Positions 4,071 to 44,981 of a DNA stretch of 64,000 nucleotides are shown one piece after another (positions within the stretch are counted from its first letter, which is position 1; each line of letters begins with the position of its first letter). The position numbers and the translations under genes are program-made. A model generated the notes under the pieces. That model searched no databases. It saw nothing but the letters and a program-made list of their open reading frames with translations, and was not told the origin of the DNA. This DNA is from Candidatus Curtissbacteria bacterium (lineage in GTDB: Bacteria > Patescibacteriota > Microgenomatia > Curtissbacterales > GWA2-41-24), in assembly GCA_030647775.1 (NCBI GenBank), contig JAUSJC010000010.1, positions 264,927 through 328,926 of the forward strand. The letters are read 5' to 3'.

Positions 4071-4991
4071 GTGGCAAAACTCGCTGCGTTAGTAATTTCC
4101 TTCCTAGCCCTTTTCGTTTTTGCGGAACTTGTTTTCGCCGAAAATCTTCTTTTGAACCCATCATTCGAGGATACTACCGGCGGTTCTCCAAACTCATGGA
4201 CTAAAAATGTAAGCACAGCTACTTTGTCTACGTCAACTACCGCCAAAGCTGGTACAGTGTCAGCGTCAATCAATAAAACAAATAGTACAACTGGGCTAAT
4301 CTACTTATATCAAGATATTGATGTGGAACCGGACGCCTTTTATTCTTTGTCCGGTTATGCAATTAAGAATAGTCCTAATTTTAGCTGGGTGATTTTACGT
4401 ATAAGCTGGAGAAGTTCTAGCGGGGAAATTAGTCAAACCGATTCCCCTCGATTAACATCTGATTCGTCTGATTTCCAATCGCTGAAAATAGATTCAGTAC
4501 AAGCGCCAAGCCAGGCGATAAAGGCCAGAATTGAACTCGCCGCCAATATTGTAACTGCTAATCCTAACAATCCAGCCCTTTTTGATGATGTAGATTTTTC
4601 CCAGATTCCGGCGCCCAACCAACCAACCTCTACACTTGCACCAATGTCTTCACCCACACCTCTTAAATCTCCGTCGCCAACCCCAACTGCTTTGCCAAAA
4701 TCTCCGACACCATCACCCCTAAAATCACCGGCGCCTGCTCCGCAAGTCTTAGCCGAATCTTCCCAAAGCGCCGCGCCGTCGGCCAGCCCAAGTTCATCTC
4801 CGGCATCAAACCAACAAAGCCCTCTGGACACAATTAAAAATAACCCCAAAACTGCTTTAATCCTTGTCGGCTCCGGCCTTATTTTAATCGGTTTATCATC
4901 GGCTTTTTATGTGTGGTATTCTAAGCTCTTGGGAAAAGGTCCAATAAAAAATGCCGAAGGCACTGAGCGAAGTCGAAGTGAAGACGATTAA
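4071..4991 (+). CDS. Cell-surface protein: signal peptide, CBM4/9-like domain, Pro/Ser/Thr-rich linker, C-terminal TM anchor
   Basis: The N-terminus reads MAKLAALVISFLALFVFA then NLLLNPSFEDT, which is CBM4/9-like. Next comes a low-complexity SPSPTPTALPKSPTPSP linker and a C-terminal hydrophobic helix. The C-terminal TERSRSEDD tail is encoded by a repeat motif. Confidence 0.55.
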   Translation: MAKLAALVISFLALFVFAELVFAENLLLNPSFEDTTGGSPNSWTKNVSTATLSTSTTAKAGTVSASINKTNSTTGLIYLYQDIDVEPDAFYSLSGYAIKNSPNFSWVILRISWRSSSGEISQTDSPRLTSDSSDFQSLKIDSVQAPSQAIKARIELAANIVTANPNNPALFDDVDFSQIPAPNQPTSTLAPMSSPTPLKSPSPTPTALPKSPTPSPLKSPAPAPQVLAESSQSAAPSASPSSSPASNQQSPLDTIKNNPKTALILVGSGLILIGLSSAFYVWYSKLLGKGPIKNAEGTERSRSEDD

Positions 4992-6156
4992 AATATCAAA
5001 GTCCGAAACACAAACCCAAAAACTCGGGGAAACTCTTGGGAAGTCATTAAAAGCCGGGGATATTGTTGCCCTGTATGGCGATCTTGGTGCCGGCAAGACC
5101 GTTTTTGTTAAAGGTATCGCCAAAGGCCTGGGCATTAAAAAGAGAATTCTCTCGCCGACCTTTGTCTTTATACGTTCTTACCCGCTTACGGGTGAAAAGC
5201 AGTTTTATCATGTCGATCTTTATCGCGGCCAAAGCCTTGAAGATTTTGAAGCGCTGGGGCTTGAAGAACTATTTTCCAAAAATAACATTGTTGTTTTGGA
5301 ATGGGCTGGGAAAATTGCTAAAATATTGCCTCAAAAACGGATCGATATCAATATAGAAAAAGTCGAAGATACTGAGCGTAGTCGAAGTAAAGATGAAAAT
5401 ACAAGAAAAATCACCATCACTTCACCTGTCATTGCGAGCGCAGCGAAGCAATCTCATAACGAGTCTTCGAGTTACAAGCGCTCTTATATTGTTCGAGCGA
5501 AGTCGAGAACTTCCTCTTCTGTCATCCTGAACTCGTTTCAGGATCTTAAAAAAGTCGTAGATCCTGAGCAAAGTCGAAGGGCCGCCTCCATTTTAAAATC
5601 TGGCGGTGTCGTTATTTTCCCGACCGATACGGTTTACGGTATTGGCTGTAGGTACGACGATAAGGACGCCCTCGACCGTATCTATAAAATTAAGTCAAGG
5701 CCAAAAGACGTACTGTTTCCCATTCTTGTATCAAGCGTCAAACAGGTCGAACGTTTAGCTATCATTACTCCCTCCGCCCGCGAGTTGATAGAAAAATATT
5801 GGCCCGGCGGCCTAACAATAATTCTCTCCACCCGTCATCCTGAACAATGTCATCCTGAACTCGATTCAGGATCTGTAATTGTTTCAGGACTCAATCAAAA
5901 AATCGGTTTCCGCATGCCGGACCACCAAGAAATCTTATCGATGATCGATCTTGTCGGTGTCCCAATAATCGGTACCTCCGCCAATTTCCATGGGCAGTCG
6001 TCCGCAGCGTCTTTTGAAGATCTGGATCCTAAACTCATTAAGCTCGCCGATTTTGTTATCAAAGGTACCTGCCGTAAGGGTGTAGAATCAACAGTAGTCG
6101 ATGCAACTGCAAACCATTTAAAAATCTTAAGACAAGGAGCAGTCACACTACGATGA
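4951..6156 (+). CDS. tRNA t6A biosynthesis: TsaE (P-loop ATPase) domain, repeat-derived linker, TsaC/YrdC/Sua5 domain, all in one continuous ORF
   Basis: The N-terminal 150 aa match TsaE/YjeE (GDLGAGKTVFVKGIAKGL). Residues from about 210 match TsaC/YrdC (SGGVVIFPTDTVYGIGC, GFRMPDH, GTSANFHGQ). The roughly 60-aa stretch between them is encoded by a repeat element with no stop codon. No ATG, GTG or TTG lies in frame ahead of the TsaC domain, so a separate tsaC start is not visible. Confidence 0.7.
   Translation: MPKALSEVEVKTIKISKSETQTQKLGETLGKSLKAGDIVALYGDLGAGKTVFVKGIAKGLGIKKRILSPTFVFIRSYPLTGEKQFYHVDLYRGQSLEDFEALGLEELFSKNNIVVLEWAGKIAKILPQKRIDINIEKVEDTERSRSKDENTRKITITSPVIASAAKQSHNESSSYKRSYIVRAKSRTSSSVILNSFQDLKKVVDPEQSRRAASILKSGGVVIFPTDTVYGIGCRYDDKDALDRIYKIKSRPKDVLFPILVSSVKQVERLAIITPSARELIEKYWPGGLTIILSTRHPEQCHPELDSGSVIVSGLNQKIGFRMPDHQEILSMIDLVGVPIIGTSANFHGQSSAASFEDLDPKLIKLADFVIKGTCRKGVESTVVDATANHLKILRQGAVTLR
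5420..5585. repeat. Palindromic repeat element, copy A (in-frame linker between the TsaE and TsaC domains)
   Basis: It contains gtcattgcgagcgcagcgaagcaatctc and the hairpin atcctgaactcgtttcaggat (5523-5543), followed by a gagcaaagtcgaag motif. It is homologous to the elements at 5835-5876 and 6490-6648. Confidence 0.6.
5835..5876. repeat. Repeat element fragment, copy B, in-frame inside the TsaC domain
   Basis: gtcatcctgaacaatgtcatcctgaactcgattcaggatctg, with the hairpin atcctgaa-ctcga-ttcaggat at 5852-5872. It encodes HPEQCHPELDSGS at a loop position that is longer than in E. coli YrdC. Confidence 0.55.
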
Positions 6157-14866: not shown

Positions 14867-16171
14867 ATGACTTTAACAATTGTAGGCGCTGGATATGTTG
14901 GTCTTGTCACCGCTGCCGTTTTTTCCGAACTCGGCAATAAAGTTTATTGCATTGATGTCGACAAGAAAAAAGTCGAAGGCCTTAAAAAAGGTAAAGTACC
15001 GTTTTTTGAACCCTCTCTCGAAGAATTTATCAAAAGGAACACCCAGGCAAAAAGACTTTTCTTTACCGCAAGTTACGCGGAATCGGTTCCCAAATCCCAG
15101 ATTGTTTTTATATGCGTCGGCACCCCTCCCAAAGAAAATGGAGAAGCTAATCTTACTTATCTGTTTTCCGCTGTTGAAGAAACCGCCAAAAACCTTTCAG
15201 GATATACCCTGATTACCATTAAAAGTACCATTCCCATTGGCCACGAAGGTGACTTGGAAGCAATTGTCAAAAAAAATGCCAAAGCCAAGTTTGAATTTGC
15301 CGCCTCGCCGGAATTTTTAAGGGAAGGGACAGCCCTGGAAGACACCCTGCATCCGGACAGGATTGTCATTGGCACTGCCAGCACCAAGGCCCAAAAACTG
15401 CTTTTAGAGCTGCATGCTCCCATTTCCGGGGAAAGAATCATTTGTGATATAAGATCCGCCCAGCTTATAAAATATGCTTCAAATTCACTTTTAGCAACGA
15501 AGGTTTCCTTTGCAAATGCCCTTGCCACCCTGTGTGAAAAAATGGGAGCAGATGTTAAAAAAGTCTTATTGGGAGTAGGAGCCGACAAGCGCATCGGCCA
15601 TTCTTTTCTTTATCCGGGCGTAGGCTATGGTGGCTCTTGCCTCCCCAAAGATGTCTTGGCTTTTATTGCTCTTTCTTCTCATTTTGGTTACGACTTTGAA
15701 CTAATCCGTGCCGTTGATGCCATCAATAATAACCAAATTGAATCTTTTATAGTCAAAATCCAAAATGCTCTTAAAGCAGGAGGCAAAAACGGTAAAACCA
15801 CGGCGGGTAAAGAATTAGCCGTTTTAGGTTTGGCTTTTAAACCAAATACCGACGACATGCGCGATGCGCCATCGATAAAAATTATTAATCACCTAACTGG
15901 CCTTGGTTACAAAGTTACTGCATACGACCCGCAGGCCATGGAAAATGCCAAAAAGGTTCTCCCTGATATTAAATATGCCAAAGATGAGTATCGGGCGGTC
16001 GATGGTAAAGATGCTATGATAATCATCACGGAGTGGTCACAATTTGCAAACCTTGACATGGATCGCGTTAAAAAGCTTTTAAGACACCCCATTATTATCG
16101 ACGGTCGTAATCTCCTGGATCCTGAAAAAATTCAAAGACTTGGATTTAAATACGTTAGCATCGGCAGATGA
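14867..16171 (+). CDS. ugd: UDP-glucose 6-dehydrogenase / nucleotide-sugar dehydrogenase
   Basis: MTLTIVGAGYVGLVTAAVFSELG and the catalytic GGSCLPKD motif. I chose the internal ATG at 14867 over the track start at 14846. Confidence 0.85.
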   Translation: MTLTIVGAGYVGLVTAAVFSELGNKVYCIDVDKKKVEGLKKGKVPFFEPSLEEFIKRNTQAKRLFFTASYAESVPKSQIVFICVGTPPKENGEANLTYLFSAVEETAKNLSGYTLITIKSTIPIGHEGDLEAIVKKNAKAKFEFAASPEFLREGTALEDTLHPDRIVIGTASTKAQKLLLELHAPISGERIICDIRSAQLIKYASNSLLATKVSFANALATLCEKMGADVKKVLLGVGADKRIGHSFLYPGVGYGGSCLPKDVLAFIALSSHFGYDFELIRAVDAINNNQIESFIVKIQNALKAGGKNGKTTAGKELAVLGLAFKPNTDDMRDAPSIKIINHLTGLGYKVTAYDPQAMENAKKVLPDIKYAKDEYRAVDGKDAMIIITEWSQFANLDMDRVKKLLRHPIIIDGRNLLDPEKIQRLGFKYVSIGR

Positions 16172-17157
16172 AAAAAGCCCTAAATTCCGCGCGGAATCAA
16201 GGTTCTTCGAAGAAGGTTCTTATTACCGGAGTTGCCGGTTTTGTCGGCAGCCATCTTACAAAATATTTAATCGCCCAAAATTTCAAAGTAGTCGGTTTCT
16301 TTCACCCCCTGCATTCAACCGAAAATATAAGTTCTCTAAAAGACAAATTAGAGCTTGTGGCATGTGACATCCTAAACTATAAGCAGGTAGAAGAGGAAAT
16401 TGCGGGGATAAAACCGGATTATGTTTTCCATCTTGCCGCATTTTCCTCGCCTTCGCAAAGTCTTCAAAATCCCCGCCAGACCTTGGAAAATAATATTTTC
16501 GGCCAGATCAACATACTAGATTCACTTGTAAAAATAAAATCCAATGCCAAAATTTTAATTGTCGGATCAGCTGACGAATATGGAAACGTGGATAAAAAAG
16601 ATTTACCCGTCAAGGAAGATCATCCGCTCTCTCCCGGTTCGCCATATGCCGTTTCAAAGGTTGCACAAGACATGCTTGGTTATCAGTACTTTTTAAATTA
16701 CGGGTTAAACATCGTTAGGGTTAGACCCTCAAACCATATCGGCCCCCGCCAGGCACCGGTCTTTGTTGTGTCGGCATTTGCTTCTCAGATAGCCGTGCTG
16801 GAAAAACAAGGAGGAGGCATTATGAAAGTTGGCAATCTTGAGAGTGAGCGTGATTTTACTGATGTGGGGGATATGGTAAAAGCTTATTTACTGGCTCTTG
16901 ATAGGGGCAAAATCGGAGAAGTCTACAATATCGGTTCGGGGAAAGTAATCAAAATTGGAAAAATATTAGAAATAATGCTTTCGCAAGTGCATGTAAAAAT
17001 AACCCCCCAAAAGGATAATGGACTCTTTCGGCCGACAGAGGTTTTTTATAGTGATCCAACAAAATTTAAAAAACAGACCGGTTGGCAGCCAACTATTCCC
17101 ATCAAGACCACTCTTTTTGATACAATAAACTACGAAAGAGAGAAACTCAAAGTATGA
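16168..17157 (+). CDS. NAD-dependent epimerase/dehydratase, probably a GDP-4-keto-6-deoxy-D-mannose reductase (Rmd/Fcl-like)
   Basis: [14 protein letters not shown] and Y-x3-K in YAVSKVAQD. It lies immediately upstream of gmd and is translationally coupled to it. Confidence 0.65.
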
Positions 17158-18125
17158 AAAGAGTGCTAATCACCGGTATCACTGGACAAGACGGCTCCTA
17201 CCTTGCCGAATTTTTGCTCTCCAAAGGTTATAAGGTTTATGGTCTCACCAGAAGGACATCGACTCCCAATTATGAACGCATCAAACACATCCAGGATCAA
17301 ATTGAACTGCTTCCGGGAGATCTTCTTGACCAGCAGTCGCTAACCTCAGCTGTCGCCAAGGCTAACCCGGACGAAATTTATAACCTCGCCGCCCAAAGTT
17401 TTGTCCAGACGTCATGGTCCCAGCCGGTCTTAACCGGAGAATTTACTGCTCTTGGAGCAACAAGAATGTTGGAAGCCCTAAGACAGGCAAAACCGGGGGC
17501 CAGATTTTATCAGGCTTCTTCATCAGAAATGTTTGGCAAAGCGCACGAAACGCCGCAGAATGAAAATACCCCATTTCACCCAAGAAGCCCCTATGGCGTT
17601 GCCAAAGTCTACGCCCACTGGATTACAATCAACTACAGAGAGTCGTATGACGTTTTTGCTGTTTCCGGGATTCTTTTTAACCATGAATCTCCAAGACGCG
17701 GCTTGGAATTTGTCACCAGGAAAATATCCCACTCCGTTGCCAAAATCCACCTTAAAGAGCAGGACCATATTGTCCTGGGAAACCTTGAGGCAAAACGCGA
17801 TTGGGGTTTTGCCGGCGATTATGTCGAGGCAATGTGGCTAATGCTGCAGCAGTCAAAACCGGATGATTATGTTGTAGCCACAGGTCAAAATCATTCGGTA
17901 AAAGAATTCGTCCAAGAAGCATTTAAGGTGATTGGTATTTCCAATTGGCAAAAATACGTTAAAACCTCGAAAGAATTTGTTCGCCCGGCTGAAGTGGATT
18001 TTTTAATTGGGGACAGTTCTAAAGCAAGAAAGGTTCTTGGATGGAAGCCGAAAGTAAATTTCCGGCAACTCGTAAGAATGATGGTCGAGTCCGATATCAA
18101 GCTTCTTGAGAAAAACCACAGATGA
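17154..18125 (+). CDS. gmd: GDP-mannose 4,6-dehydratase
   Basis: [30 protein letters not shown] is a near-canonical Gmd N-terminus. Also [10 protein letters not shown] and [16 protein letters not shown]. Confidence 0.9.
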
Positions 18126-19324
18126 AACTCGTTGTTAACATCCCAACCTACAATGAAAAAGAAAACATTGAATCCTGCATTAAAAATGTCCTTGCCCAGG
18201 CGAAAAACCTAAAAGGGCTAGATCTCGAGATTTTGGTTTCCGATAGTCATTCACCGGATGGTACGGGCGAAATTGTTAAAAAAATTTCACGAACCAACCC
18301 AAAAGTTCACTATCTGGATGTAAAAGAACGCGGTTTAGGAGTTGGTATCGTCAAGGGCCACAGATACGCTATCGACAAACTAAAAGCGGATATCTTAGCT
18401 CAAATGGATGGGGATCTTTCCCACGATCCGGTGACATTACCGCAAATGATTTCTTTCATAAATCAAGGCTACGATTTAGTCAACGGCTCCAGAATGATAA
18501 AGGGCGGTAAAAATCTTCTTGGGTGGCATCGCAGGCTTTTTACTAGAGGTTCTGCCTTATTTTGCAAATTGAGTTGGGGGACTTTCAAACTCACAGAATA
18601 TACTAATTCATACCGGGTTTTCACGAGAGGACTTTTCCAAAAGATTGATTTTTCCAAAGTCCCATGGAAGTCTAAAACTTATATCATCCAGCCGGCTTTT
18701 TTATATGCGGCAATTGAAGCCGGGGCAAAAATCAAAGAAGTCCCGATTACTTTTCAAGACAGGAAAAAAGGGTATTCAAAAGCCAAGATTGTTGCTTACA
18801 CTTTTGACGTTCTAAGGTTTGGTATTAGGGTCCGTCTGGAAAAATCCGCCACTTTCATTAAGTTCTTGATCGTCGGCACGATGAGTTATTTTGTCAATGC
18901 CGTTTTATTGGGCCTTTTATTTCGCGGCCAAATCTATTCATTAAAAGTTTTACCCGGTCCGATTCTATCTTTTCTTCCCCTCGGTGGAATGGCGGCAAAA
19001 ATTTCTATAATTACTCTAGACCGCCTGTTCATTGCTTCAGTAATCGCCGCGGAAGTTTCAATTATCTTCAACTTTTTTTGGCACGAAAATTGGACTTTTA
19101 AAAACCGTGAGCATAAAGGTTCAATATTCCTGCGGCTTTTTAAATTTAACTCCTCATCGATAATCAGCCCGATTATCCAAGTTGTGAGCATTCAGGTTTT
19201 CTTCCATGTTCTCCACTTGAGTGAGCAAATTGGCCTGGCTGTCGGCGTAATAGTCGGACTGTTCGTAAATTATGCCATCAATATCCTTTGGATTTGGAAA
19301 GCCCATCCCCGGCCCGCTAAATAA
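18122..19324 (+). CDS. GT2 polyprenol-phosphate glycosyltransferase (Dpm1/GtrB-like) fused to a C-terminal GtrA-like 4-TM domain
   Basis: The N-terminal 230 aa form a GT-A fold with DSHSPDG and the D-x-D of QMDGD. The C-terminal 150 aa have four TM helices with the GtrA signature [13 protein letters not shown]. Confidence 0.75.
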
Positions 19325-19325
19325 A

Positions 19326-20831
19326 ATGCGCATTGAAAAAAAGAAATTAGAATTAATTATTATTGCCGCGGTCATTTTGATTGCAGTTTTTTTTCGCTTC
19401 TGGCAGATTCGTGATTATGTCGTCTTCTTGGGTGACGAAGGCCGCGATATGCTCGTTATGAGAAATATGATTCTGGAAAAACGTCCGGTTTTTCTTGGCC
19501 CGACAGCCTCTGTCGGGGGTTTTTACCTTGGCCCGATTTATTACTGGATGGCAGCTCCGTTTTTGGCACTTTGGCGCTTTGACCCCGTTGGCCCTTCCGT
19601 TATGGTTGCCACGTTCGGAGTCGCTACTGTCGTCCTTCTTTATAAGTTTTTAAGAGAAGTGGCAGGATTTTGGCCGGCAACTCTTGCCAGTCTTCTTTAT
19701 GCCATTGCCCCTTTAATTGTTCGGTACTCCAGGTCATCTTGGAACCCCAACCCTCTACCATTTTTCGCCCTTCTGCAAATCTATTCTGTCTATTTGGCAA
19801 TTACCAGGAAAAAGCCTTTGCTTTTTTTGGTTTCCGGTTTATGTTTTGGGGTAGCGATCCAACTGCATTATTTGGCGATTTCTCTTATTCCGATCTCGAT
19901 TGCAATAATCGTCTTAAATTCAAATTTCAAAAGTTGGCCCAAGGCGATTGCCTTGACATTTATCGGTGCTTTTATTACTTTTTCTCCTTTTTTAATATTC
20001 GAAGCAAGGCACGGTTTTCCAAACTTTCACACGATTTTAGAATTTGTAACCCGCAAAACGACTCACGGTTATCAAAGTCCGAATATAATCTGGGTTATTT
20101 CGAACTTTGGCAATATTTTATTGGAAGATATTGCAAAATTTAGCGGAACCATTCTTACTAAAGTTGCTTTTTGGAGTTTAAGCTTCGGCAGTATATTTAT
20201 TCTTGCCAAAAATTGGCAAAACGAGAAAAAGCGCCTTATCGGTTCAATTTGTGTCATTTGGTTTTTGGGGGGCTTGGCAGTTCTAAGGTTCTACTCCGGC
20301 CAGATATTCGATTACTATTTCGGTTTTATGTTTCCCGCGCCGTTTTTTGCGTTTGGTGTTGTTGTAGGGGAGTATTGGCAAAAGAATACTTTCAAGTTAA
20401 TTTTTATTTCCTTTACAATTTTTGCATCGGTACTATTTTTAAATAGAGGTTTTTGGCAAAGCCCCCCCAACCGTTTAATTAATCAGACTCAAACTATTGC
20501 GGATTATGTAATACAAAAGTCTCAAGGCGAGCCTTTCAATTTCGCTCTAATGTCAGACCATAATAGCGACCACGCGTATCGCTATTTTCTGGAAATCAGA
20601 GGGGCAAAACCTGTACAATTAGAAACGATGGTTACAGACCAGCTTCTAATAGTCTGTGAATCAAAAAAATGTTCCCCGCTTGGATATCCAAGCTGGGAGG
20701 TAGCCGGTTTTGGTAGAGGAGAAGTAAATGACCAGTGGGAACTGCCAAATTTTGGAATCCGGATTTTTCGTCTGACTCATTGGGCAGGTGCTCCCAACCC
20801 GGCCGGTAAACCCGCAGTCAAAGAACAATGA
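19326..20831 (+). CDS. Polytopic GT-C-type membrane glycosyltransferase (ArnT/PMT-like)
   Basis: Has at least 11 TM helices. The first loop reads VVFLGDEGRDMLV, placing the acidic motif where GT-C enzymes carry it. Follows the GtrB-GtrA fusion gene. Confidence 0.6.
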   Translation: MRIEKKKLELIIIAAVILIAVFFRFWQIRDYVVFLGDEGRDMLVMRNMILEKRPVFLGPTASVGGFYLGPIYYWMAAPFLALWRFDPVGPSVMVATFGVATVVLLYKFLREVAGFWPATLASLLYAIAPLIVRYSRSSWNPNPLPFFALLQIYSVYLAITRKKPLLFLVSGLCFGVAIQLHYLAISLIPISIAIIVLNSNFKSWPKAIALTFIGAFITFSPFLIFEARHGFPNFHTILEFVTRKTTHGYQSPNIIWVISNFGNILLEDIAKFSGTILTKVAFWSLSFGSIFILAKNWQNEKKRLIGSICVIWFLGGLAVLRFYSGQIFDYYFGFMFPAPFFAFGVVVGEYWQKNTFKLIFISFTIFASVLFLNRGFWQSPPNRLINQTQTIADYVIQKSQGEPFNFALMSDHNSDHAYRYFLEIRGAKPVQLETMVTDQLLIVCESKKCSPLGYPSWEVAGFGRGEVNDQWELPNFGIRIFRLTHWAGAPNPAGKPAVKEQ

Positions 20832-21748
20832 AATTAAAACACATTATATCTTCAAAACAGTTCGAGAAAAGTTTTATCCGATCTATTTTTGAAAAGGCCG
20901 ATCAGATTAAAAGCGGCAGATATAATAAAAATATTCTTGCCGGTAGAATAATGGCGACACTCTTTTACGAACCCTCAACAAGGACAAGATTTTCTTTCGA
21001 GTCGGCGATGCAAAGGCTTGGCGGCAGCGTCATCTCAACCGAAAATGCATACCAGTTCTCTTCCGCTGCCAAAGGGGAAACAATTGAGGATACTATTAGG
21101 ATTGTAAGCTCCTACAGCGATGTCATTGTCTTGAGGCACGACACGCTCGGCGCTTCCCAAGTAGCGGCAAGTCTTTCAAAAGTCCCCGTTATCAACGCCG
21201 GGGACGGAAATGGTGAGCACCCCACACAAGCGCTTCTCGATCTTTATACAATTTTCTCAAAATTCAAAACCCCCGATTTTACAGTTATCATGATTGGTGA
21301 TCTTCTAAACGGAAGAACAATTCACTCGCTATCGTATCTACTTTCACTTTACCCAAAAATCAAAATTATTTTTGTTTCACCAAAAGCGCTGGCCATTCCC
21401 AAAACCTTAAAGAGTCATTTAATTGCTACCAAAATTGATTTTACCGAAACAGAAGATTTTGATTTTGCCTTAAAGAAAGCGGACGTAATTTACCAGACAA
21501 GAATTCAAAAAGAAAGGTTTAAAACAAAAAACGATTATAAGAAATATTTTGGAAGGTTCATCATTGATGAAAGTACTTTGCAAAAGATTAAACCAAGAAG
21601 TATCATTATGCACCCTCTGCCAAGAATTAACGAAATTGCACCTAGTGTTGATTCTGACCCCCGTGCCCTTTACTTCCAGCAGGCGGCAAATGGCGTTTAC
21701 ATTAGAATGGCCCTTCTGCTTTATCTCCTTGGCCCGAAAAATCAATGA
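20828..21748 (+). CDS. pyrB: Aspartate carbamoyltransferase catalytic subunit
   Basis: STRTRFSFE, HPTQALLD (ATCase-type HPTQ rather than the OTC-type HPCQ) and HPLPR. Confidence 0.85.
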   Translation: MKLKHIISSKQFEKSFIRSIFEKADQIKSGRYNKNILAGRIMATLFYEPSTRTRFSFESAMQRLGGSVISTENAYQFSSAAKGETIEDTIRIVSSYSDVIVLRHDTLGASQVAASLSKVPVINAGDGNGEHPTQALLDLYTIFSKFKTPDFTVIMIGDLLNGRTIHSLSYLLSLYPKIKIIFVSPKALAIPKTLKSHLIATKIDFTETEDFDFALKKADVIYQTRIQKERFKTKNDYKKYFGRFIIDESTLQKIKPRSIIMHPLPRINEIAPSVDSDPRALYFQQAANGVYIRMALLLYLLGPKNQ

Positions 21749-22687: not shown

Positions 22688-23899
22688 TTGTCTAAAGTGT
22701 CCAAACTCGAAAAAATACTCCTTGCGGCAAACGTCCTTCTATATGGTTTCTTAGCCGTATTCTCCTACGCTTATGTTGATTTGAACCTGACACTTTCCCA
22801 AAACCCTGCCGCGCTCGAATTTGTCGGCCTCATGCAGCAGCTTGGCTATTATCACCGCCCCCAGGCGACCTTTATATATGTAATCTTTATAGCTGTCGCC
22901 TTCTCTTTTTTCGTCTTGAATTTATTTCTTTTTGCCAAATCAAAAATCAGCCTTAAATATCTCAAGGTTGCCACCGTCGTAAATACGCTGATACTTATCT
23001 TTGCCTACCCGTTTTTGTCATCGGACCTTTTTAATTATCTTTTTGACGCCAAAATCATTACCCATTATCACGTCAGTCCATACAATCATCGCGCCTTGGA
23101 TTTTCCCCAAGACGATTGGATCCGTTTCATGCGCTGGGTTCACCGCTATTCTCCCTATGGCCCGGCCTGGCTTGGGATGTCACTTATTCCCTCATTCCTT
23201 GGATTTGGAAAATTCCTATTAACGTTTTTTACTTTCAAAGTTTTTATCGGCATTTTCCATCTGGTTAACAGCAGAATTATCTATAAAGTTTTGGAGAAAG
23301 TTAACCCAAAACAAGCTCTTTTTGGCACCGCTTTTTACGCCCTTAATCCGCTGTTTTTAATTGAGGGTATTGCCAATGGCCACAATGATCTCGTTTTTGC
23401 CACATTTTTACTTCTCCCGATTTATTTTTCTCTCGCCAAACGGAAAGAAATCTTATTCGCCGCGACTTTTTTAATAGGGGTACTTATTAAATATATTTCA
23501 GTTTTAAATCTTCCTTGGTACATAGTGAGGACTTATTTGAAAAAACCAAAAGGCTTTGAAAATTTTGTAATTTTAAATATCCTAACAATGGCCGTCTTTA
23601 CCTTTTTATACTCGACCTTCAGGATTACCGTCCCATTTGTTTCTTCCGGTAGCACTCAAGTCCAGTTTCAGCCATGGTATCTTTTCTGGACAATACCGCT
23701 TATCGCTTTTATTCCCAATCCTTTCTATATGGCAGTCGCAATAATTTTGGTAATTGGATCAATGTTGCGTTATCTTCCGTTTATCTATTTCGGCGACTGG
23801 TCCACGCCCGGAACCATCCAGTATATGCGCCTAGTAACTGTTCTGCCTACTTTTATAGCATTATTTGTAGTTGCGGTTCTAAAATTTAGGAAAAGATGA
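22688..23899 (+). CDS. Polytopic integral membrane protein, possible GT-C glycosyltransferase
   Basis: 403 aa with about 11 TM helices and a TTG start. No specific family recognised. Confidence 0.45.
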   Translation: MSKVSKLEKILLAANVLLYGFLAVFSYAYVDLNLTLSQNPAALEFVGLMQQLGYYHRPQATFIYVIFIAVAFSFFVLNLFLFAKSKISLKYLKVATVVNTLILIFAYPFLSSDLFNYLFDAKIITHYHVSPYNHRALDFPQDDWIRFMRWVHRYSPYGPAWLGMSLIPSFLGFGKFLLTFFTFKVFIGIFHLVNSRIIYKVLEKVNPKQALFGTAFYALNPLFLIEGIANGHNDLVFATFLLLPIYFSLAKRKEILFAATFLIGVLIKYISVLNLPWYIVRTYLKKPKGFENFVILNILTMAVFTFLYSTFRITVPFVSSGSTQVQFQPWYLFWTIPLIAFIPNPFYMAVAIILVIGSMLRYLPFIYFGDWSTPGTIQYMRLVTVLPTFIALFVVAVLKFRKR

Positions 23900-25356
23900 A
23901 AAAAACCTATTTTGCCCTTGCAATAATTTTAACAGTTGCAGCACTTTTGAGAATTCCACTAGTTGCCCAGGGCTTTTTTGCTTTTACCTACGACCAGGGA
24001 AGGGATTTTCTGGCAGTTAGTCAAATAGTCGAAACTCATAAAATTCCCTTAATCGGCCCTACAACCGGGTTGCAGGGAATTTTCTACGGGCCGTGGTGGT
24101 ATTATTTCTTAGTCCCATTATTTCTTATAACAAACGGTAATCCCACTGGCATAGCTCTAGCCTTTTCCGTTATTGGCATTATTAATGTTTTTCTTTTTTT
24201 CTTTCTCATTAAAAAAATCACCGGCAGCGATCTTGCCGCGCTTGGAGTCGCCGCTATTGCCGCAATGTCTTCGGTTTTTCTGACATCCTCCAGCCAAATT
24301 TGGAGTCCGTCTTTGGTTTTACCGCTTATGCTGCTTTATGTTTACTCCCTCGTAAAAATTTTTGAAAAGCACACAAAACTCTGGTTTTTTCTGCTTGGTT
24401 TATCATCAGCTTTGGTTATGGAAAGTGGCGCAGCCTTCGGGATAGTACTTATAATTTCAACCTTTATCGCATTTATCTTCTTCTCTAAAGATTTTTTTAG
24501 GAAAAATCTAATCTTCTTTTTCTTGGGACTGATGCTGATTTTCTTGCCGAGAATAATTTTTGAATTGCGGCATAACTTTCTTATTACAAAATCCACTGTT
24601 GATTGGCTTAGCCATCCGAGGGTTTATCAGGAAAAGTTGAATATCCTCCAAAGGTTTTTTATAAGGATTGATCTTTTCGATTGGAATTTAGCCCAAACAT
24701 TCACCCGGTCAAATAAAATTTTAACACTTATACCGATACTGGCAATTGTCCTTGGCCTTAAACTTTCAAAGTTTAAACTCCTCAAAAATAAGCTTTTCAA
24801 ATTTCTTTCAATATTAACCATCATCATACTTTTGGGTTTCACTATTTACCCGGATGCGCTTTGGGATTACTACTTAGTCGGTTTACCGCAAATCGCCCTT
24901 ACCATTTTTGCCATCAGCATTGCGCATCTATTGTCTTATGCAAAAAAACTTGCCATTTCCATTTTGACTCTGACAATTATCTTGGGGTTTAACACCCAAT
25001 TACTCTCCCCATTTTTAATTACTTGGCTTGGAGACGGGGCTATATACCGTAACCAAAAGATGGTTATGGACTATATTGCATCCCAAAAGCCGCAAAATTA
25101 CAGTTTTTACGCTTATACACCGGCCATTTTTGATTACCCTTTCGACTACATTGTCGATTGGTATGCTAGAAGAGGTTTGATAGAAAAGCCCAAAAGCATG
25201 CAAAAATCTTTTTACTTGGTGATCAGAGATAAAAGTAATAAAAAGTATTTTAACGAGGGATGGTATGGGGATAAAACCAGGGATAAAACCCAAGTAATTG
25301 ATAAAAAAGAATTTCCCGGCGATTTACTTTTGGAAAAGCATATCAGAAATGATTAA
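23896..25356 (+). CDS. GT-C membrane glycosyltransferase (ArnT/PMT-like)
   Basis: Polytopic. The first loop FAFTYDQGRDFL carries the acidic motif, and there is a C-terminal soluble domain. Confidence 0.55.
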   Translation: MKKTYFALAIILTVAALLRIPLVAQGFFAFTYDQGRDFLAVSQIVETHKIPLIGPTTGLQGIFYGPWWYYFLVPLFLITNGNPTGIALAFSVIGIINVFLFFFLIKKITGSDLAALGVAAIAAMSSVFLTSSSQIWSPSLVLPLMLLYVYSLVKIFEKHTKLWFFLLGLSSALVMESGAAFGIVLIISTFIAFIFFSKDFFRKNLIFFFLGLMLIFLPRIIFELRHNFLITKSTVDWLSHPRVYQEKLNILQRFFIRIDLFDWNLAQTFTRSNKILTLIPILAIVLGLKLSKFKLLKNKLFKFLSILTIIILLGFTIYPDALWDYYLVGLPQIALTIFAISIAHLLSYAKKLAISILTLTIILGFNTQLLSPFLITWLGDGAIYRNQKMVMDYIASQKPQNYSFYAYTPAIFDYPFDYIVDWYARRGLIEKPKSMQKSFYLVIRDKSNKKYFNEGWYGDKTRDKTQVIDKKEFPGDLLLEKHIRND

Positions 25357-34764: not shown

Positions 34765-34899
34765 GGAAATACATTGAGTTTAAGTTTAATATAATAAGGA
34801 AGGAGTATCCTTCCTTGCGAGAATTTTGCTACTATTGAAATCGTTGTTTCAGTAGTGCTCCATTCTCTAAGGGAAGGAGTAAACTGTCGGATTAACCTT

Positions 34900-36705
34900 A
34901 TGAAAAAGAATCTTATTTTGAACGAAAATCAGAGAACCACGGCCTTTAGACCGTGGGAATCTATTTTTATTATCTTCTTGTTTTTTTTCTCAATTATTAT
35001 CTCAAGCCCTTTTCTAAAACCCGGATTTTATACGGTGCATGATGATCAGCAATTCGCCAGGCTTTTCGAATTTGATAAATCTCTAAGATCCGGTCAAGTC
35101 CCGCCGCGTTGGGTCGAAGACTTAGGCTTTGGTTTTGGCTATCCGCTGTTTGTATTTTATCCGCCGCTTGTCTATTTTTTGGGAGAGGCGTTTCATCTTG
35201 CTGGTTGGGGATATATCGATTCGATAAAACTTGTCTTTTTTATATCAGTATTCGGATCGGCAGTTGCCATGTACATTTTGACTAGAGAATTCTGGGGGAA
35301 GCTCGAGGCCTTTACCTCCAGCATGTTTTACATCTTCGCTCCTTATAGAGCTCTTGATATCTACGTTAGAGGGGCCTTAGCGGAAAGTTTTTCATTTGTT
35401 TGGCTGCCTCTTCTCTTCTGGTCATTTTACAAGCTGCAAAAAACCCAAAAGCCAGTCTATATTATAGCTTCCGGGTCTTTTTTGGCTCTCCTTATGCTCA
35501 CCCATAATTTAATATTTATTCCTTTCATGCTGATTCTTCCTATTTTCCTCCTTTTCCTTCTTTGGCAATCTAAAAGCAAAAAGCTATTCCTAATTGGAAG
35601 TCTTATTTCTTTTATTATTGCTTTTGGAGCCAGTGCCTTTTTTTGGATACCGGCACTTTTGGAAAAAAGATTTACAATCGTTGACCAATTACTTTTAGTT
35701 AATCTTGCCGATTTTCGAATGCATTTTGTTTATCCCGAGCAACTCTGGAATTGGCCATGGGGCTTTGGCGGTTCAGCGCCCGGACTAACAGACGGCATCT
35801 CTTTCAAAATAGGTAAGCTCCACGTTATTGTCTCACTTCTTGCATTTAGCTTAACAATACTACAGCTTGTCAAAGACAAGATAAAATCAAAACAATCAAC
35901 TATTTCGAGTCCACGAGAAACAAGCGCTCTTATATTTTTTGCCCTATTCTTATTTTCGGCATTTATGACCACATCTTACTCGCAGTTGATCTGGGATTTT
36001 ATACCCCCTCTTGCCTATCTTCAATTCCCTTGGCGTTTTCTGACATTTGTTATTCTGACAGGTTCAATCTTGGCAGGTGCCTTTATCTATTTTTTAAGGC
36101 TAGAGATTTTAAAAATAGTTTTTTCGGTACTTTTAATCTCTCTTTTAATTTTTCCGAACCTTAAGCTTTTTAAGCCCCAGACCTACAGGGAAAATTTAAC
36201 GGACAAAATTGTGACCTCAAAGGAGGTCATTAATTGGGATGTTTCATCATCGTCATTTGAGTACGCGCCAAAAGGCGTCGAGCTTTATAAAAATAGCCGG
36301 GGAGCCAATGTCATCAAAATTGAAAAATCCCAAATCCCCAAGGAAAAACTAGAAATTTTATCAGGGGTAGCCCAAATTAATTTGTCAAAAAATAATCCGT
36401 CGGATTTAGAGTTTGATATCAATGCCAAAGAAGACACTAAACTCAAAGCAAACATTTTTTCCTTTCCGGGATGGCAATTAAAAATTGATGGGAATCTGTC
36501 ACCAATTAACGACGATAACAACCTTAAGTTGATCACATTCAATATTCCGTCGGGGTTGCACCATGTAGAACTCGCCTTCAAAAACAGCCTGGTCATAAGT
36601 CTAGCAAACTTGATAACGCTTATGACACTGGTGGCACTTGTAATAATTATTATGTTTAGGAATAATCAACGAGTTAAAACAAAACTAAAATATGTCAGAC
36701 CCTGA
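34900..36705 (+). CDS. YfhO-superfamily-like polytopic membrane protein (paralog of 27754 and 48911)
   Basis: GFYTVHDDQQFARLFEF...YPLFVFYPPLVYFL and a C-terminal FSFPGWQLKIDGN. Start taken at the internal ATG (MKKNLIL). Confidence 0.55.
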   Translation: MKKNLILNENQRTTAFRPWESIFIIFLFFFSIIISSPFLKPGFYTVHDDQQFARLFEFDKSLRSGQVPPRWVEDLGFGFGYPLFVFYPPLVYFLGEAFHLAGWGYIDSIKLVFFISVFGSAVAMYILTREFWGKLEAFTSSMFYIFAPYRALDIYVRGALAESFSFVWLPLLFWSFYKLQKTQKPVYIIASGSFLALLMLTHNLIFIPFMLILPIFLLFLLWQSKSKKLFLIGSLISFIIAFGASAFFWIPALLEKRFTIVDQLLLVNLADFRMHFVYPEQLWNWPWGFGGSAPGLTDGISFKIGKLHVIVSLLAFSLTILQLVKDKIKSKQSTISSPRETSALIFFALFLFSAFMTTSYSQLIWDFIPPLAYLQFPWRFLTFVILTGSILAGAFIYFLRLEILKIVFSVLLISLLIFPNLKLFKPQTYRENLTDKIVTSKEVINWDVSSSSFEYAPKGVELYKNSRGANVIKIEKSQIPKEKLEILSGVAQINLSKNNPSDLEFDINAKEDTKLKANIFSFPGWQLKIDGNLSPINDDNNLKLITFNIPSGLHHVELAFKNSLVISLANLITLMTLVALVIIIMFRNNQRVKTKLKYVRP

Positions 36706-38164: not shown

Positions 38165-38165
38165 A

Positions 38166-39071: not shown

Positions 39072-39192
39072 TGGAGTTCGAGAACCGGCGTCTCCTCATT
39101 ATATCAGCCGCCGAAGACACTACCCTGATATAATTACTCAGTGCATTTCAGAAAGTTAAATCGCCGGCCCAAATCTTAGATAAATAACAACC

Positions 39193-40092: not shown

Positions 40093-40093
40093 C

Positions 40094-41621: not shown

Positions 41622-42667
41622 AATTTGGTTTTTATAGTCCTTATCTTGACACGTTTGGTGGGGGGGAGAGATATATGCTGTCCCTTGCCTCTCATCTTGC
41701 CCAAAACCATTTAGTTGATATTTTTTGGGATGATGTAAATATTAAACCTCCACTGGCGCGATTTTTAAAAATAGATCTTACTAAAACGAGGTTTGTTAAA
41801 AATATTTTTGCAGAAAGTTTAGCCAAAAGGGCATTTGCAATGCTTGGCTATAATTTAATTTTTGTTCTTTCCGATGGCTCTATTCCCTCCACATTCGCGC
41901 CCAAAAATATTCTTCATTTTCAAGTGCCATTTAACTTCCAGGGGACAAGCCTTAGCAATAAGCTGAAATTAAAAAGATATAACTACGTTGTCTGCAACTC
42001 CAATTTTACAAAAAAATTTATAGACAAGAGTTTTAATGTTAACTCAATAGTTATATACCCCCCAGTCGATATCCAATCAATAAAACCGGGGAAAAAAGAA
42101 AATTTAATAATTTCAGTCGGCCGTTTTAGCGCCCACCAGCTTCATCCCAAAAAGCAGGAAGTATTGATAGAAATATTTAAAGAACTTTCAAAAAAGGCAA
42201 AGGGATGGCGTCTTGTTTTGGCAGGGCAGGCAAAAAAAGAAGACGAGAAATATTTACGGCAGCTCAAAAAGGCTTGTCGCGGTTTTGCTATCAGAATAGA
42301 AGAAAATATGCCGATTGAGGAATTAGGGAAATTATATTCGCAGGCATCAATCTATTGGCACGCGACTGGATTTGGCGAGGACGAATTAAAAAACCCCGAA
42401 AAAATGGAGCACTTCGGAATTTCTACTGTTGAAGCTCAGGCTGGCGGTGCGGTTCCGGTAGTAATCGATAAAGGGGGGCAAAAAGAGATAGTCCAAGAAG
42501 GCAAAAATGGTCTTCTTTGGACGACAAAAGCCCAGCTTTATGAACAAACTTTAAGGCTGATTAACTCACCCGATCTCATCGAAAAACTTTCCCTGGCGGC
42601 TATTAGAAATAGTAAAAGATTTGACCAGGAAAAATTCTTCCGCAAATATGGAGAGATCATTTTATAA
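41618..42667 (+). CDS. GT4 (GT-B) glycosyltransferase
   Basis: C-terminal EHFGISTVEAQAGGAVPVV, matching the E-x7-E motif. Confidence 0.8.
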   Translation: MKFGFYSPYLDTFGGGERYMLSLASHLAQNHLVDIFWDDVNIKPPLARFLKIDLTKTRFVKNIFAESLAKRAFAMLGYNLIFVLSDGSIPSTFAPKNILHFQVPFNFQGTSLSNKLKLKRYNYVVCNSNFTKKFIDKSFNVNSIVIYPPVDIQSIKPGKKENLIISVGRFSAHQLHPKKQEVLIEIFKELSKKAKGWRLVLAGQAKKEDEKYLRQLKKACRGFAIRIEENMPIEELGKLYSQASIYWHATGFGEDELKNPEKMEHFGISTVEAQAGGAVPVVIDKGGQKEIVQEGKNGLLWTTKAQLYEQTLRLINSPDLIEKLSLAAIRNSKRFDQEKFFRKYGEIIL

Positions 42668-44981
42668 TAATATCTTAGGCCTTTTAGTAACCGTCCTTCT
42701 TATTTTGGCTTTTTTTCTTCCAGGCGCGTTTAAAGGTAAATTCCCAATCCCTGCAGATGCACTTATCAATCTTTATCATCCCCTAAGAGATATATCCCAA
42801 GACGGCTATAGTCCGGGCAGGTTCCCGGCAAAAAATACTCTCATTACCGATCCGGTTCTTCAAACTTATCCATGGAGGTTTACGGCAGTCAGCGATATGA
42901 AGTCTGGCAATTTTCCGCTATGGAATCCCTACAATTTTTCCGGCCAGCCGCTTTCAGCCAATATCCAATCCGCGCCCTTTCAAATCACAAACATTTTGTT
43001 TCTTGTTCTTCCTTTTAAAATAGCATGGTCAATCCAAATTATTCTTCCAGAAATCCTTTTGGGGGTTTTTATCTATTTTTACTTACGGTTTGGGCTCAAT
43101 CTTTCTATTATCCCATCGGTTTTTGGCGGTTTTATAGCACCTTTTACCGGTTTTTTTGTTGCTTGGATGACGTGGGGAACTGTGGTTACAACTGCCATGT
43201 GGCTGCCCCTAATTTTGCTTTCAATAGAACAAATTTTCAAAAAATCTCCTCTTTGGATAATTATCCTGATTCTTAGTGTCTCTCAAACAATTTTCTCCGG
43301 TCATTGGCAAACTGCCCTCTATGTTCTTGGCGCAAGCACCGTCTATATAATTTTTAAAATTGCCCAATTCAAAGATTATAAAAGATTAGGAGAAGTTGTA
43401 TTTGCGCTAATAGTTTCAGTTTTAATTACAGGCGTTCAAATCCTACCCGCCTTCGAATTTTTAAAATATTCTGCCAGAGGCTTGGATCAAGCCTTTACTT
43501 CCGGTAGACAAGATTGGTTTTTACCGCCTCAGCATCTAATCCAAATGATCGCGCCGGATTTTTTTGGTAATCCGGCAACGGGTAATTACTGGGGAATTTG
43601 GAATTATGGAGAATTTGTTTCCTTCATTGGCATCGTTCCGTTGTTTTTGGTAATTCTTGCTTTTTTCAAAAGGAATAGGGGAACTTACTTCTTTATCTTT
43701 TTAGCTGTAACATCTCTGGTTCTAGCTCTTCCCAATCCGATTTCAAAAATTCCCTATCTCTTAAACCTTCCGCAAATATCCTCCATGCAGCCCTCCAGAA
43801 TAATTTTTTTATTGGATTTTTCACTAATAATCCTTGCTGCTTTTGGGCTGGAGTTTCTGCTTAAGGAGAAAAAAATCAAAAAGATACTTTTTTCTGCACT
43901 CCCAATCATATTTATATCAATAGTTCTCGCTCTTGCACCACTTCTGGCAAAGGGTTTTTTCCCAAATATAAACGGTATAGATCCGATATCAATATCTTCA
44001 AGGAACGTAGTGATGCCGCTTTTTACCTCAATCCTATTACTGCTCATTATTTTTGTGAAAAAGATAACCACAAAAAAGCATTATTTGGTTTTAATCATCT
44101 TTTTGATAACGGCGTTTGAACTATTCAGGTTCTCTTACAAGTTCACGCCATTTTCAAAACTATCATGGGTTTTCCCCCAGACAAAAACACTGACATATTT
44201 AGGGTCTCAGGAAAAACCGTTTAGAATAATTACCACCGACAGAAGAATCCTTCATCCAAACTCATCCGCCGCTTACGGCATCGAGTCGATTGATGGTTAT
44301 GACCCCCTGTACCTGCTCAAGTATGCAAAATTTATCTCTGCCCTGCAGTCAAATAGCGTCCAGTCAGCCGTGTCTTCTTACAATAGAATCATTACGCCCC
44401 AAAAAATAGAATCGAATCTCACCAATCTTCTAAACGTAAAATATATACTTACTTTTAATGAATTTAAAAACCCGGATTTTGTAAAAGTTTTTGAAGAGGG
44501 GGAAACAAAAACATATTTGAATAAAAAATCTCTGCCAAGGGCGTTTTTTGTTAGTAGTGTGGAAAAACAATCAACCGACGCAGGAGAGCTTGCAAAGCTT
44601 TTGGACAAGAATTTCGATATTGCCTCTCAAGCAACATCGAAGGATTTTTCGTTTCCAAGACAAGTTCTTATCGGTCAAGTAAAAATTAATTCTTATAGCG
44701 ACTCTTCAATAACCCTAAAAACGTCGCTTGATAAAGAGGCCCCTCTAGTTTTAACAAATATCAATTACCCCGGTTGGAAAGCAGAAATTGACGGGAAAGA
44801 AACAAAGATAAATGAAGTTGATTTTATGTTCCAATCGGCATTAATCCCGGCAGGTGAACATATTGTTGATTTCAAATACAAGCCCCAATCCTTCTATAAT
44901 GGGTTATACTTAACTCTAGCTGGAATAGCGATTTCAATTGCAAGCTTAATCTTTTTATGCCGCAAAAAATATCTGTCGTAA
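42621..44981 (+). CDS. YfhO-family GT-C membrane glycosyltransferase (paralog 2)
   Basis: FPLWNPYNFSGQPLSANIQS, and the C-terminal INYPGWKAEIDGKETKI is YfhO-like. It is a clear paralog of 25349..27754. The exact start is uncertain by 1 nt in my counting. Confidence 0.7.
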   Translation: MTRKNSSANMERSFYNNILGLLVTVLLILAFFLPGAFKGKFPIPADALINLYHPLRDISQDGYSPGRFPAKNTLITDPVLQTYPWRFTAVSDMKSGNFPLWNPYNFSGQPLSANIQSAPFQITNILFLVLPFKIAWSIQIILPEILLGVFIYFYLRFGLNLSIIPSVFGGFIAPFTGFFVAWMTWGTVVTTAMWLPLILLSIEQIFKKSPLWIIILILSVSQTIFSGHWQTALYVLGASTVYIIFKIAQFKDYKRLGEVVFALIVSVLITGVQILPAFEFLKYSARGLDQAFTSGRQDWFLPPQHLIQMIAPDFFGNPATGNYWGIWNYGEFVSFIGIVPLFLVILAFFKRNRGTYFFIFLAVTSLVLALPNPISKIPYLLNLPQISSMQPSRIIFLLDFSLIILAAFGLEFLLKEKKIKKILFSALPIIFISIVLALAPLLAKGFFPNINGIDPISISSRNVVMPLFTSILLLLIIFVKKITTKKHYLVLIIFLITAFELFRFSYKFTPFSKLSWVFPQTKTLTYLGSQEKPFRIITTDRRILHPNSSAAYGIESIDGYDPLYLLKYAKFISALQSNSVQSAVSSYNRIITPQKIESNLTNLLNVKYILTFNEFKNPDFVKVFEEGETKTYLNKKSLPRAFFVSSVEKQSTDAGELAKLLDKNFDIASQATSKDFSFPRQVLIGQVKINSYSDSSITLKTSLDKEAPLVLTNINYPGWKAEIDGKETKINEVDFMFQSALIPAGEHIVDFKYKPQSFYNGLYLTLAGIAISIASLIFLCRKKYLS

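Follow-up and report, generated by a model that had tools for sequence, protein, structure and literature searches.

A 64 kb stretch of DNA (below, the window) from a groundwater Candidatus Curtissbacteria genome, a lineage of the Candidate Phyla Radiation (CPR), encoded a 400-amino-acid protein (gene 18122..19324) in which a glycosyltransferase family 2 (GT2) domain was joined to a C-terminal, four-helix GtrA-like membrane domain. Directly downstream lay the gene of a polytopic glycosyltransferase with a predicted GT-C fold (19326..20831). Homology and structure models suggested that the fused protein is probably a polyprenyl-phosphate sugar synthase that feeds the adjacent GT-C enzyme. Judged by the same evidence, it is built like the archaeal type-III dolichyl-phosphate mannose synthase (DPMS), of which the Pyrococcus furiosus enzyme (PfDPMS) is structurally characterized (PDB 5MLZ, 5MM0, 5MM1 and 9EP0; Gandini et al.; PMC12992685). 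The most fitting annotation is that of a DPMS-like polyprenyl-phosphate glycosyltransferase of type-III architecture, with an ArnT/PMT-like GT-C enzyme as its partner, and not that of a novel GtrB-GtrA fusion. A first-pass annotation of the window had described the gene as GtrB and GtrA joined in one protein. The features discussed are listed in Table 1.

In the list of open reading frames (ORFs), the fused gene started with an ATG that shared bases with the TGA stop codon of the upstream gmd gene (ATGA). Two Pfam profiles scored far above their gathering cutoffs within the one polypeptide: Glycos_transf_2 (PF00535) at residues 6-174 (90.8 bits, cutoff 23.3, E = 1.2e-25) and GtrA_DPMS_TM (PF04138) at residues 302-392 (61.2 bits, cutoff 26.1, E = 1.4e-16). 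This upheld the first-pass description of a GT2 domain followed by a domain with a GtrA profile, and the protein motif quoted there was found at residues 316-328. The Pfam match omitted helix 1 of the membrane domain, but all four helices were covered by the alignment with PfDPMS and by a profile of the family (residues 247-399). An AlphaFold2 (AF2) model built from an alignment of 88 diverse family members had a mean pLDDT of 94.6. It placed membrane helices at residues 243-267, 301-325, 335-363 and 368-391, in line with the four helices expected from the first pass, and an interface helix at residues 223-241, next to the GT-A catalytic domain. The loop between helices 1 and 2 carried a variable, lineage-specific insert of 33 residues (268-300). 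The motifs of the catalytic domain were PTYNE, D41, D96-G-D98-L-S-H101, G-S-R124, R137 and R214-KKGYS-K220.

The top match of the fused protein in a sequence search of the PDB was PfDPMS (5mlz; E = 1.4e-34, 28% identity), which aligned over both domains in two stretches, residues 1-266 (catalytic domain and helix 1) and 304-392 (helices 2-4). ArnC (approximately 1e-8) and GtrB (5ekp; 8e-5) were aligned with the catalytic half alone. Foldseek comparison of the model with the PDB gave the same order: the three PfDPMS entries 5mlz, 9ep0 and 5mm1 ranked first (approximately 400 columns, E about 1e-22, TM 0.59/0.65), and ArnC and GtrB followed. PgfS was also among the matches of the GT2 domain. The proposed assignment to the GtrB type was thus not borne out, with E = 1.4e-34 for PfDPMS versus 8e-5 for GtrB and no sign of the two-helix anchor of GtrB. 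Nor is the fusion noteworthy in itself: type-III DPMS has been described as joining a GT2 domain to four GtrA-like helices (PMC12992685), and the Pfam title of PF04138 is "GtrA/DPMS, transmembrane domain". The first-pass annotation had opposed a GtrA match to an ordinary DPMS membrane anchor as the deciding test. The DPMS anchor itself belongs to the GtrA-like domain family, so this dichotomy is a false one and the test cannot discriminate.

For a comparison of individual residues, PfDPMS positions were mapped through the 5mlz alignment and conservation was counted in the 88-sequence alignment. All 88 members kept E12, S44, T48, D98, R124, R137 and R214. D96 was present in 87 and H101 in 82 of them, and D96, H101 and K220 were each present in at least 82. 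The set covers the metal, donor and acceptor-phosphate residues (D96/D98/H101, R124, R137 and R214 to K220). The lipid phosphate in PfDPMS is bound by Arg117 (in the motif SRY), Arg131, Ser135 and Lys178 (in KIL) (PMC12992685). The two arginines, which bind dolichyl phosphate (PMC12992685), corresponded to R124 and R137, both invariant in the family. Tyr118 was replaced by Met in the fused protein (SRY to SRM) and Ser135 by T141, a position with Ser in 67 members and Thr in 16. Lys178 fell on K183 in the phmmer alignment, where the family alignment was ambiguous (Lys 30/88, Arg 15/88). In the polar pocket, Asn248 corresponded to N259 (Asn in 60 members, Gln in 16) and Asn277 to N317 (Asn in 77). 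The pocket residue Arg341 was N383 (Asn in 78), which by alignment fits the pattern outside the Thermococcales, where Asn replaces Arg341 in every analysed type-III sequence (PMC12992685).

Type-III DPMS was given a strict definition by motifs in 2026, together with the conclusion that these enzymes occur in hyperthermophilic archaea only (PMC12992685). The fused protein combined a GT-A domain and a four-helix membrane domain in one chain, as seen in the AF2 model and the full-length fold match to 5mlz. It lacked the motif DADxQHPP (PfDPMS residues 89-96; x = Leu, Phe or Tyr), having 96-DGDLSHDP-103 in its place; in the family, position 100 was Ser in 57 and Gln in 31 sequences, and position 102 was Asp in 60. 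The gating residue Phe338, where Tyr is tolerated, was L380, with Leu in 29, Val in 14, Thr in 14, Phe in 10 and Met in 8 of the 88 members. Strict membership in type-III DPMS was rejected on account of these two features. The DxD region of eukaryotic DPM1 reads DADLSH, which resembles the Ser-His version in the fused protein. Like PfDPMS, the fused protein carries its GT-A domain, interface helices and four GtrA-like membrane helices in one polypeptide, and it keeps the arginines that bind the lipid phosphate as well as two of the pocket asparagines. The two differ in the replacements DGDLSHDP, SRM, Thr for Ser135 and Leu for Phe338, in the insert between helices 1 and 2, and in the host, a hyperthermophilic archaeon there and a mesophilic CPR bacterium here. 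The lipid would presumably differ as well, being a bacterial polyprenyl phosphate and not dolichyl phosphate.

The GT-C gene started 1 nt past the stop codon of the fused gene, so the first-pass statement that such a gene follows directly was correct. Its open frame extended back to 19272 (19272..20831), with 19326 as an internal ATG. The start at 19326 was supported by a gene call of 501 aa for an identical protein (P0270; L085). A start at 19272 was disfavoured, as it would create a 53-nt overlap with the upstream gene and add residues outside the conserved N-termini of the orthologues. The protein matched Pfam PMT_2 (49.1 bits, cutoff 26.1, E = 9.8e-13). An AF2 model based on database homologues and window paralogues (pLDDT 83.7, pTM 0.87) showed a polytopic GT-C fold with ArnT as the best match (5f15; TM 0.60/0.57), followed by STT3, AglB, PglB, ALG12, Pmt4 and AftB. 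The acidic motif FLGD37-E38-GRD, FLGD[EQ]GRD in orthologues, was located directly after the first helix, in the first extracytoplasmic loop, as expected of a GT-C enzyme. D37 was invariant and E38 at least 90% conserved among 41 sequences including the window paralogues. A sequence-only search of the PDB with this protein gave no meaningful match and NCBIfam contained no family for it. Its orthologues appear in NCBI under the name "glycosyltransferase family 39 protein". It is the presumed consumer of the lipid-linked sugar made by the fused protein.

The order gmd-fused gene-GT-C gene was conserved in other Curtissbacteria, with 67-76% protein identity. The whole syntenic block comprised rmlA-B-C-D, ugd, rmd, gmd, the fused gene, the GT-C gene, pyrB, a short GT2 gene and genes for an MptA_B-family GT-C, a YfhO and a PTPS_related protein. 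Linkage was counted over 80 related genome loci. A gene similar to 19326 was immediately downstream of the fused gene in 18 of the 70 loci with enough flanking sequence, and these 18 included all close relatives with enough flank and a few of the more distant ones. Some GT-C-like gene lay within 6 kb in 35 of 58 loci.

The two-domain architecture was common and already annotated automatically, and both the architecture and the Pfam name were known beforehand. NCBI already held an identical protein ("glycosyltransferase [Candidatus Curtissbacteria bacterium]"), and JGI and UniRef call relatives dolichol-phosphate mannosyltransferase. The 120 closest homologues, which were at least 69% identical, all had both Pfam domains. 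An exhaustive search of representatives clustered at 50% identity recovered 20,341 relatives at E ≤ 1e-3, of which 166 reached E ≤ 1e-30, and 79 of the 133 best such representatives had GT2 together with PF04138. In a scan of species-representative genomes, relatives occurred mainly in CPR (Curtiss-, Davies-, Gottesman-, Roizman-, Collier-, Beckwith- and Shapirobacteria, WWE3 and Saccharibacteria), with a few elsewhere. A literature search for GT-C enzymes of CPR and for described bacterial GT2-GtrA fusions returned nothing specific. Among the representatives were natural triple fusions of GT2, GtrA and PMT_2 (P0149, 851 aa; P0226, 1041 aa), the latter a single uninterrupted ORF on its contig (L086:1019-4144), and fusions of GT2 with PMT_2 (P0151, P0193). 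These natural fusions with PMT_2 provided independent support for a functional coupling of the synthase and the GT-C enzyme. Other arrangements among the relatives were a GT2-GtrA-DUF6798 fusion (P0199) and a protein with the reverse order GtrA-GT2 (P0201).

We hypothesized that a nucleotide sugar, most likely GDP-mannose, donates its sugar to polyprenyl phosphate in a reaction catalysed by the cytoplasmic GT-A domain. The four-helix GtrA-like domain would, together with the interface helix, keep this lipid at the membrane surface. The lipid-linked sugar would then get to the outer face of the membrane, possibly aided by the same GtrA-like domain, where the GT-C enzyme would move it onto an extracytoplasmic acceptor such as a surface protein or a wall polymer. 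Several observations weigh against this pathway. The sequence DGDLSHDP is not the archaeal DADxQHPP, and the gate residue Phe338 is a Leu at a position that varies across the family. In WWE3 and Saccharibacteria (loci L037, L051, L052, L058, L061, L064, L068, L071, L083 and L084), a short DPMS-like GT2 gene and ugd, and no GT-C gene, came after the fused gene, so the pairing of fused gene and GT-C gene in the window is clade-specific. The donor is ambiguous, since the upstream Rmd and Gmd make GDP-D-rhamnose and a UDP-glucuronate decarboxylase gene takes the immediate upstream position in Roizmanbacteria and another Microgenomates genome. Finally, flipping by the membrane domain of PfDPMS is itself only a hypothesis, and catalysis survives removal of that domain (PMC12992685).

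The last point bears on how the lipid-linked sugar crosses the membrane. The GtrA-like domain could serve as an anchor only, tethering the enzyme and presenting the polyprenyl chain, with crossing left to another protein or to spontaneous transfer; we considered this to fall just short of an even chance. It agrees with the catalytic competence of PfDPMS variants that lack the membrane domain or have a blocked pocket (PMC12992685), and with the poor conservation of the Phe338 gate position in the bacterial family. In the window, the short GT2 proteins 21802, 32633 and 45849 have no GtrA-like domain and so must use something else or share that of the fused protein, and a Wzx/MurJ-like transporter was encoded at 36692. 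Against an anchor only, the three pocket positions N259, N317 and N383 were strongly Asn or Gln across the 88 diverse members, which is more than a passive anchor needs, and stand-alone GtrA-family proteins such as GtcA are required for three-component glycosylation (PMC7389260). In one crystal form of PfDPMS, a flipped Dol-P-Man sits in this very polar pocket (PMC12992685), and conservation of the aligned positions supports the flipping step of the proposed pathway. A bolder version, which we regard as rather unlikely, would make the fused protein a bacterial, mesophilic counterpart of type-III DPMS. Its Asn-lined GtrA-like domain would flip its own product and, as the only such domain in the window, supply some 16 GT-C enzymes, and the triple fusions would be channelled machines that make, flip and transfer. 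If true, this would offer a compact setting in which to examine the passage of polyprenyl-phosphate sugars through membranes, a long-unresolved question. It is very improbable, in turn, that the GT2 domain is an ordinary glycan-elongating enzyme with a membrane domain and that the GT-C enzyme works independently. The GT2 family is very large and diverse in activity, and no NCBIfam equivalog scored above its cutoff for the fused protein, but the best matches (DPMS, ArnC, GtrB and PgfS) are all polyprenyl-phosphate glycosyltransferases, the lipid-phosphate Arg residues of PfDPMS are invariant, and the natural PMT_2 fusions tie both activities together.

As for the sugar, mannose is the best guess from homology, and we hold it with moderate confidence. 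The genes rmd, gmd and the fused gene overlapped stop-to-start, which makes Rmd a possible donor-supply step for the fused enzyme, judging by sequence. A lipid charged with D-rhamnose from GDP-D-rhamnose, and perhaps with a UDP-pentose in other clades, was accordingly considered, and found improbable. This overlap, the match of Rmd to 2pk3 (2e-70), the Gmd score above the TIGRFAM cutoff and the presence of Gmd as the upstream neighbour in 21 of 74 related loci are in its favour. In related clades, however, a UDP-glucuronate decarboxylase (UDP-xylose synthase) gene (E = 1e-94 and 1e-99; L020:5036-5998 and L045:5039-5998), preceded by ugd, takes the immediate upstream slot, and in Curtissbacteria gmd occupies the slot held by that gene in those Microgenomates. 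No orthologue of the decarboxylase was found in the window. Assigning the donor sugar from gene adjacency was rejected, as the upstream gene differs among relatives. This variation among clades indicates that the fused gene ends a general nucleotide-sugar supply block (rmlABCD, ugd), in which the identity of the neighbouring gene is no guide to the donor. Moreover, both the DxDxSH signature and the nearest structures belong to mannose synthases, and we know of no description of a polyprenyl-phosphate D-rhamnose.

A lipid-phosphate sugar synthase, a GtrA-like module and a GT-C transferase together fit the three-component logic that the first pass had recognized. The Gtr system of Shigella and Salmonella phages (GtrB, 5EKP) likewise has a cytoplasmic GT2 enzyme that makes a polyprenyl-phosphate sugar, a GtrA-family module and GT-C transfer outside the cytoplasm. 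A GtrA-family four-helix component was present in the window too, as a fused domain and not as a separate small protein, and the adjacent transferase (PMT_2, ArnT-like fold, 1 nt downstream) had its equivalent. The GT2 component itself was not of the GtrB type: GtrB, whose anchor consists of two helices of its own, is a distant match over the N-terminal half (E = 8e-5), while the fused protein has four GtrA-like helices. Furthermore, the phage system is phage-borne, uses UDP-glucose as the donor and targets O-antigen, in contrast to the chromosomal, conserved locus in the window. To our knowledge, O-antigen is not expected in a CPR bacterium.

The teichoic acid glycosylation systems of Bacillus and Listeria (CsbB/GtlA-GtcA-YfhO/GtlB; PMC5836110, PMC7389260) provide a Gram-positive-type set of three components that includes a GtrA-family member, and YfhO-family proteins were also encoded in the window (25298, 42621). 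Their components are separate genes, whereas the partner of the fused gene is PMT_2/ArnT-like and not YfhO. In the lipid A system ArnC-ArnE/F-ArnT, ArnC was the second-best structural match of the GT2 domain and ArnT the best fold match of the GT-C enzyme, but there the flippase is a separate SMR-like pair, the sugar is Ara4FN from ArnA/B and the acceptor is lipid A. In the actinobacterial Ppm1/Pmt and MptA/MptB systems, a polyprenyl-phosphate mannose synthase feeds GT-C mannosyltransferases. Ppm1 lacks a GtrA-like domain and in M. tuberculosis is fused to a different membrane domain. An orthologue of the MptA_B-family GT-C enzymes was encoded at 22688 in the window.

The first-pass annotation had also singled out three further GT2 genes, 21802, 32633 and 45849, and had done so rightly. 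The catalytic-domain profile of the fused family covered them nearly in full length (E = 4e-24 to 4e-40), including the GSR motif with the phosphate-binding Arg, and 5mlz was their best PDB match, weakest for 45849. The four generic GT2 genes of the window (38166, 39193, 40070 and 44957) matched the profile mainly in its N-terminal part, with E = 1e-6 to 6e-13. Each of the three had been said to adjoin a GT-C-type gene. This held for 21802, which was directly upstream of 22688 (gap 65 bp), and for 32633, whose end overlapped the start of 33379 by 4 bp. It did not hold for 45849, which was near the YfhO gene 42621 only, with the GT2 gene 44957 in between and the next downstream gene on the minus strand. 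Neither 22688 in the window scan nor 33379 matched a Pfam family. Syntenic orthologues of 22688 carry PF26314 (MptA_B_family), and 33379 is a possible GT-C enzyme by its sequence.

The co-occurrence check suggested in the first pass showed that 36 of 52 short DPMS-like GT2 genes in the related loci directly preceded a GT-C-like gene. The proposal that the module is iterated along the island was therefore right about the pairing and wrong about the fused module: the short proteins had no membrane helices, and the family profile, searched against all reading frames of at least 60 aa in the window, detected no second GtrA-like domain and matched the fused gene only. The repeating unit is a pair of synthase and GT-C enzyme.

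Table 1. Positions in the window of the fused gene, its domains, its neighbours and the other GT2/GT-C genes discussed.
Feature	Position	Strand	Basis or remark
Rmd (GDP-6-deoxy-D-lyxo-4-hexulose reductase)	16168..17157	+	PDB 2pk3, E 2.2e-70
Gmd (GDP-mannose 4,6-dehydratase)	17154..18125	+	TIGR01472, 443.7 bits vs cutoff 415
Fused polyprenyl-phosphate glycosyltransferase (probable), 400 aa	18122..19324	+	PF00535, PF04138, PDB 5mlz, AF2 model
GT-A catalytic domain, predicted cytoplasmic, with interface helix (residues 1-240)	18122..18841	+	Alignment of 88 members
GtrA/DPMS-type membrane domain, four helices	18848..19294	+	Model secondary structure, profile match 247-399
ArnT/PMT-like GT-C glycosyltransferase, 501 aa	19326..20831	+	PMT_2, AF2 model, ArnT fold
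pyrB (aspartate carbamoyltransferase)	20828-21748		Between two GT2/GT-C pairs
Short DPMS-like GT2, 273 aa, no membrane helix	21802..22623	+	5mlz 1.1e-16; profile 2e-37, GSR motif
Polytopic membrane protein, 403 aa, MptA/MptB-family-like GT-C	22688..23899	+	Ten hydrophobic segments
PMT_2 GT-C, paralogue of 19326, motif YDQGRD	23896..25356	+	Pfam; phmmer vs 19326 1e-17
Short DPMS-like GT2, 249 aa, no membrane helix	32633..33382	+	5mlz 1.4e-22; profile 4e-40
Polytopic membrane protein, 461 aa, QDDW after first helix	33379..34764	+	Ten hydrophobic segments
PTPS_related polytopic membrane protein, GT-C-like	34855..36705	+	PF10131; paralogues 27754, 48911
Wzx-type cluster: Polysacc_synt_3 flippase (Wzx/MurJ-like, 36692), three generic GT2, methyltransferase, GT1, YfhO, another GT2	36692-45877		
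YfhO-family GT-C-like membrane protein	42621..44981	+	PF09586, 3.3e-27
Short DPMS-like GT2, 262 aa, no membrane helix	45849..46637	+	5mlz 3.5e-6; profile 4e-24

About 16 polytopic GT-C-type genes were located within the window (span 19326-62913). They included the PMT_2 genes of the FLGD[EQ]GRD type (19326 and 23896), six tandem PMT/PMT_2 paralogues (50592, 52267, 53856, 56189, 58131 and 61243; mutual E = 1e-52 to 1e-121) and a PMT_2 singleton (59753). The others were YfhO (25298, 42621), PTPS_related (27754, 34855, 48911), MptA_B-like (22688) and 33379. At 53881-54035, a 21-bp tandem repeat (7.3 copies, 98% matches) appeared as LIRRKAL x7 at the N-terminus of the frame of GT-C gene 53856; the repeat may precede the true start codon or code for a repetitive basic tail. 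The unusual placement of pyrB was conserved in most other Curtissbacteria contigs. A separate polysaccharide cluster of the Wzx type lay between the GT2/GT-C pairs. Outside the glycosylation genes, a single ORF at 4951-6156 joined two components of the t6A pathway, a TsaE domain and a Sua5/YrdC (TsaC-type) domain.

With about 16 GT-C-type genes in 64 kb, the window shows how heavily this small CPR genome invests in glycosylation outside the cytoplasm. Mesophilic CPR bacteria abound in proteins built like type-III DPMS that keep the pocket Asn residues, and some of these are fused to their presumed GT-C consumer. This abundance in bacteria qualifies the conclusion that type-III DPMS is confined to hyperthermophilic archaea (PMC12992685), which itself rests on a strict motif definition. 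The bacterial proteins, including the natural triple fusions, are material for testing synthase-coupled flipping.

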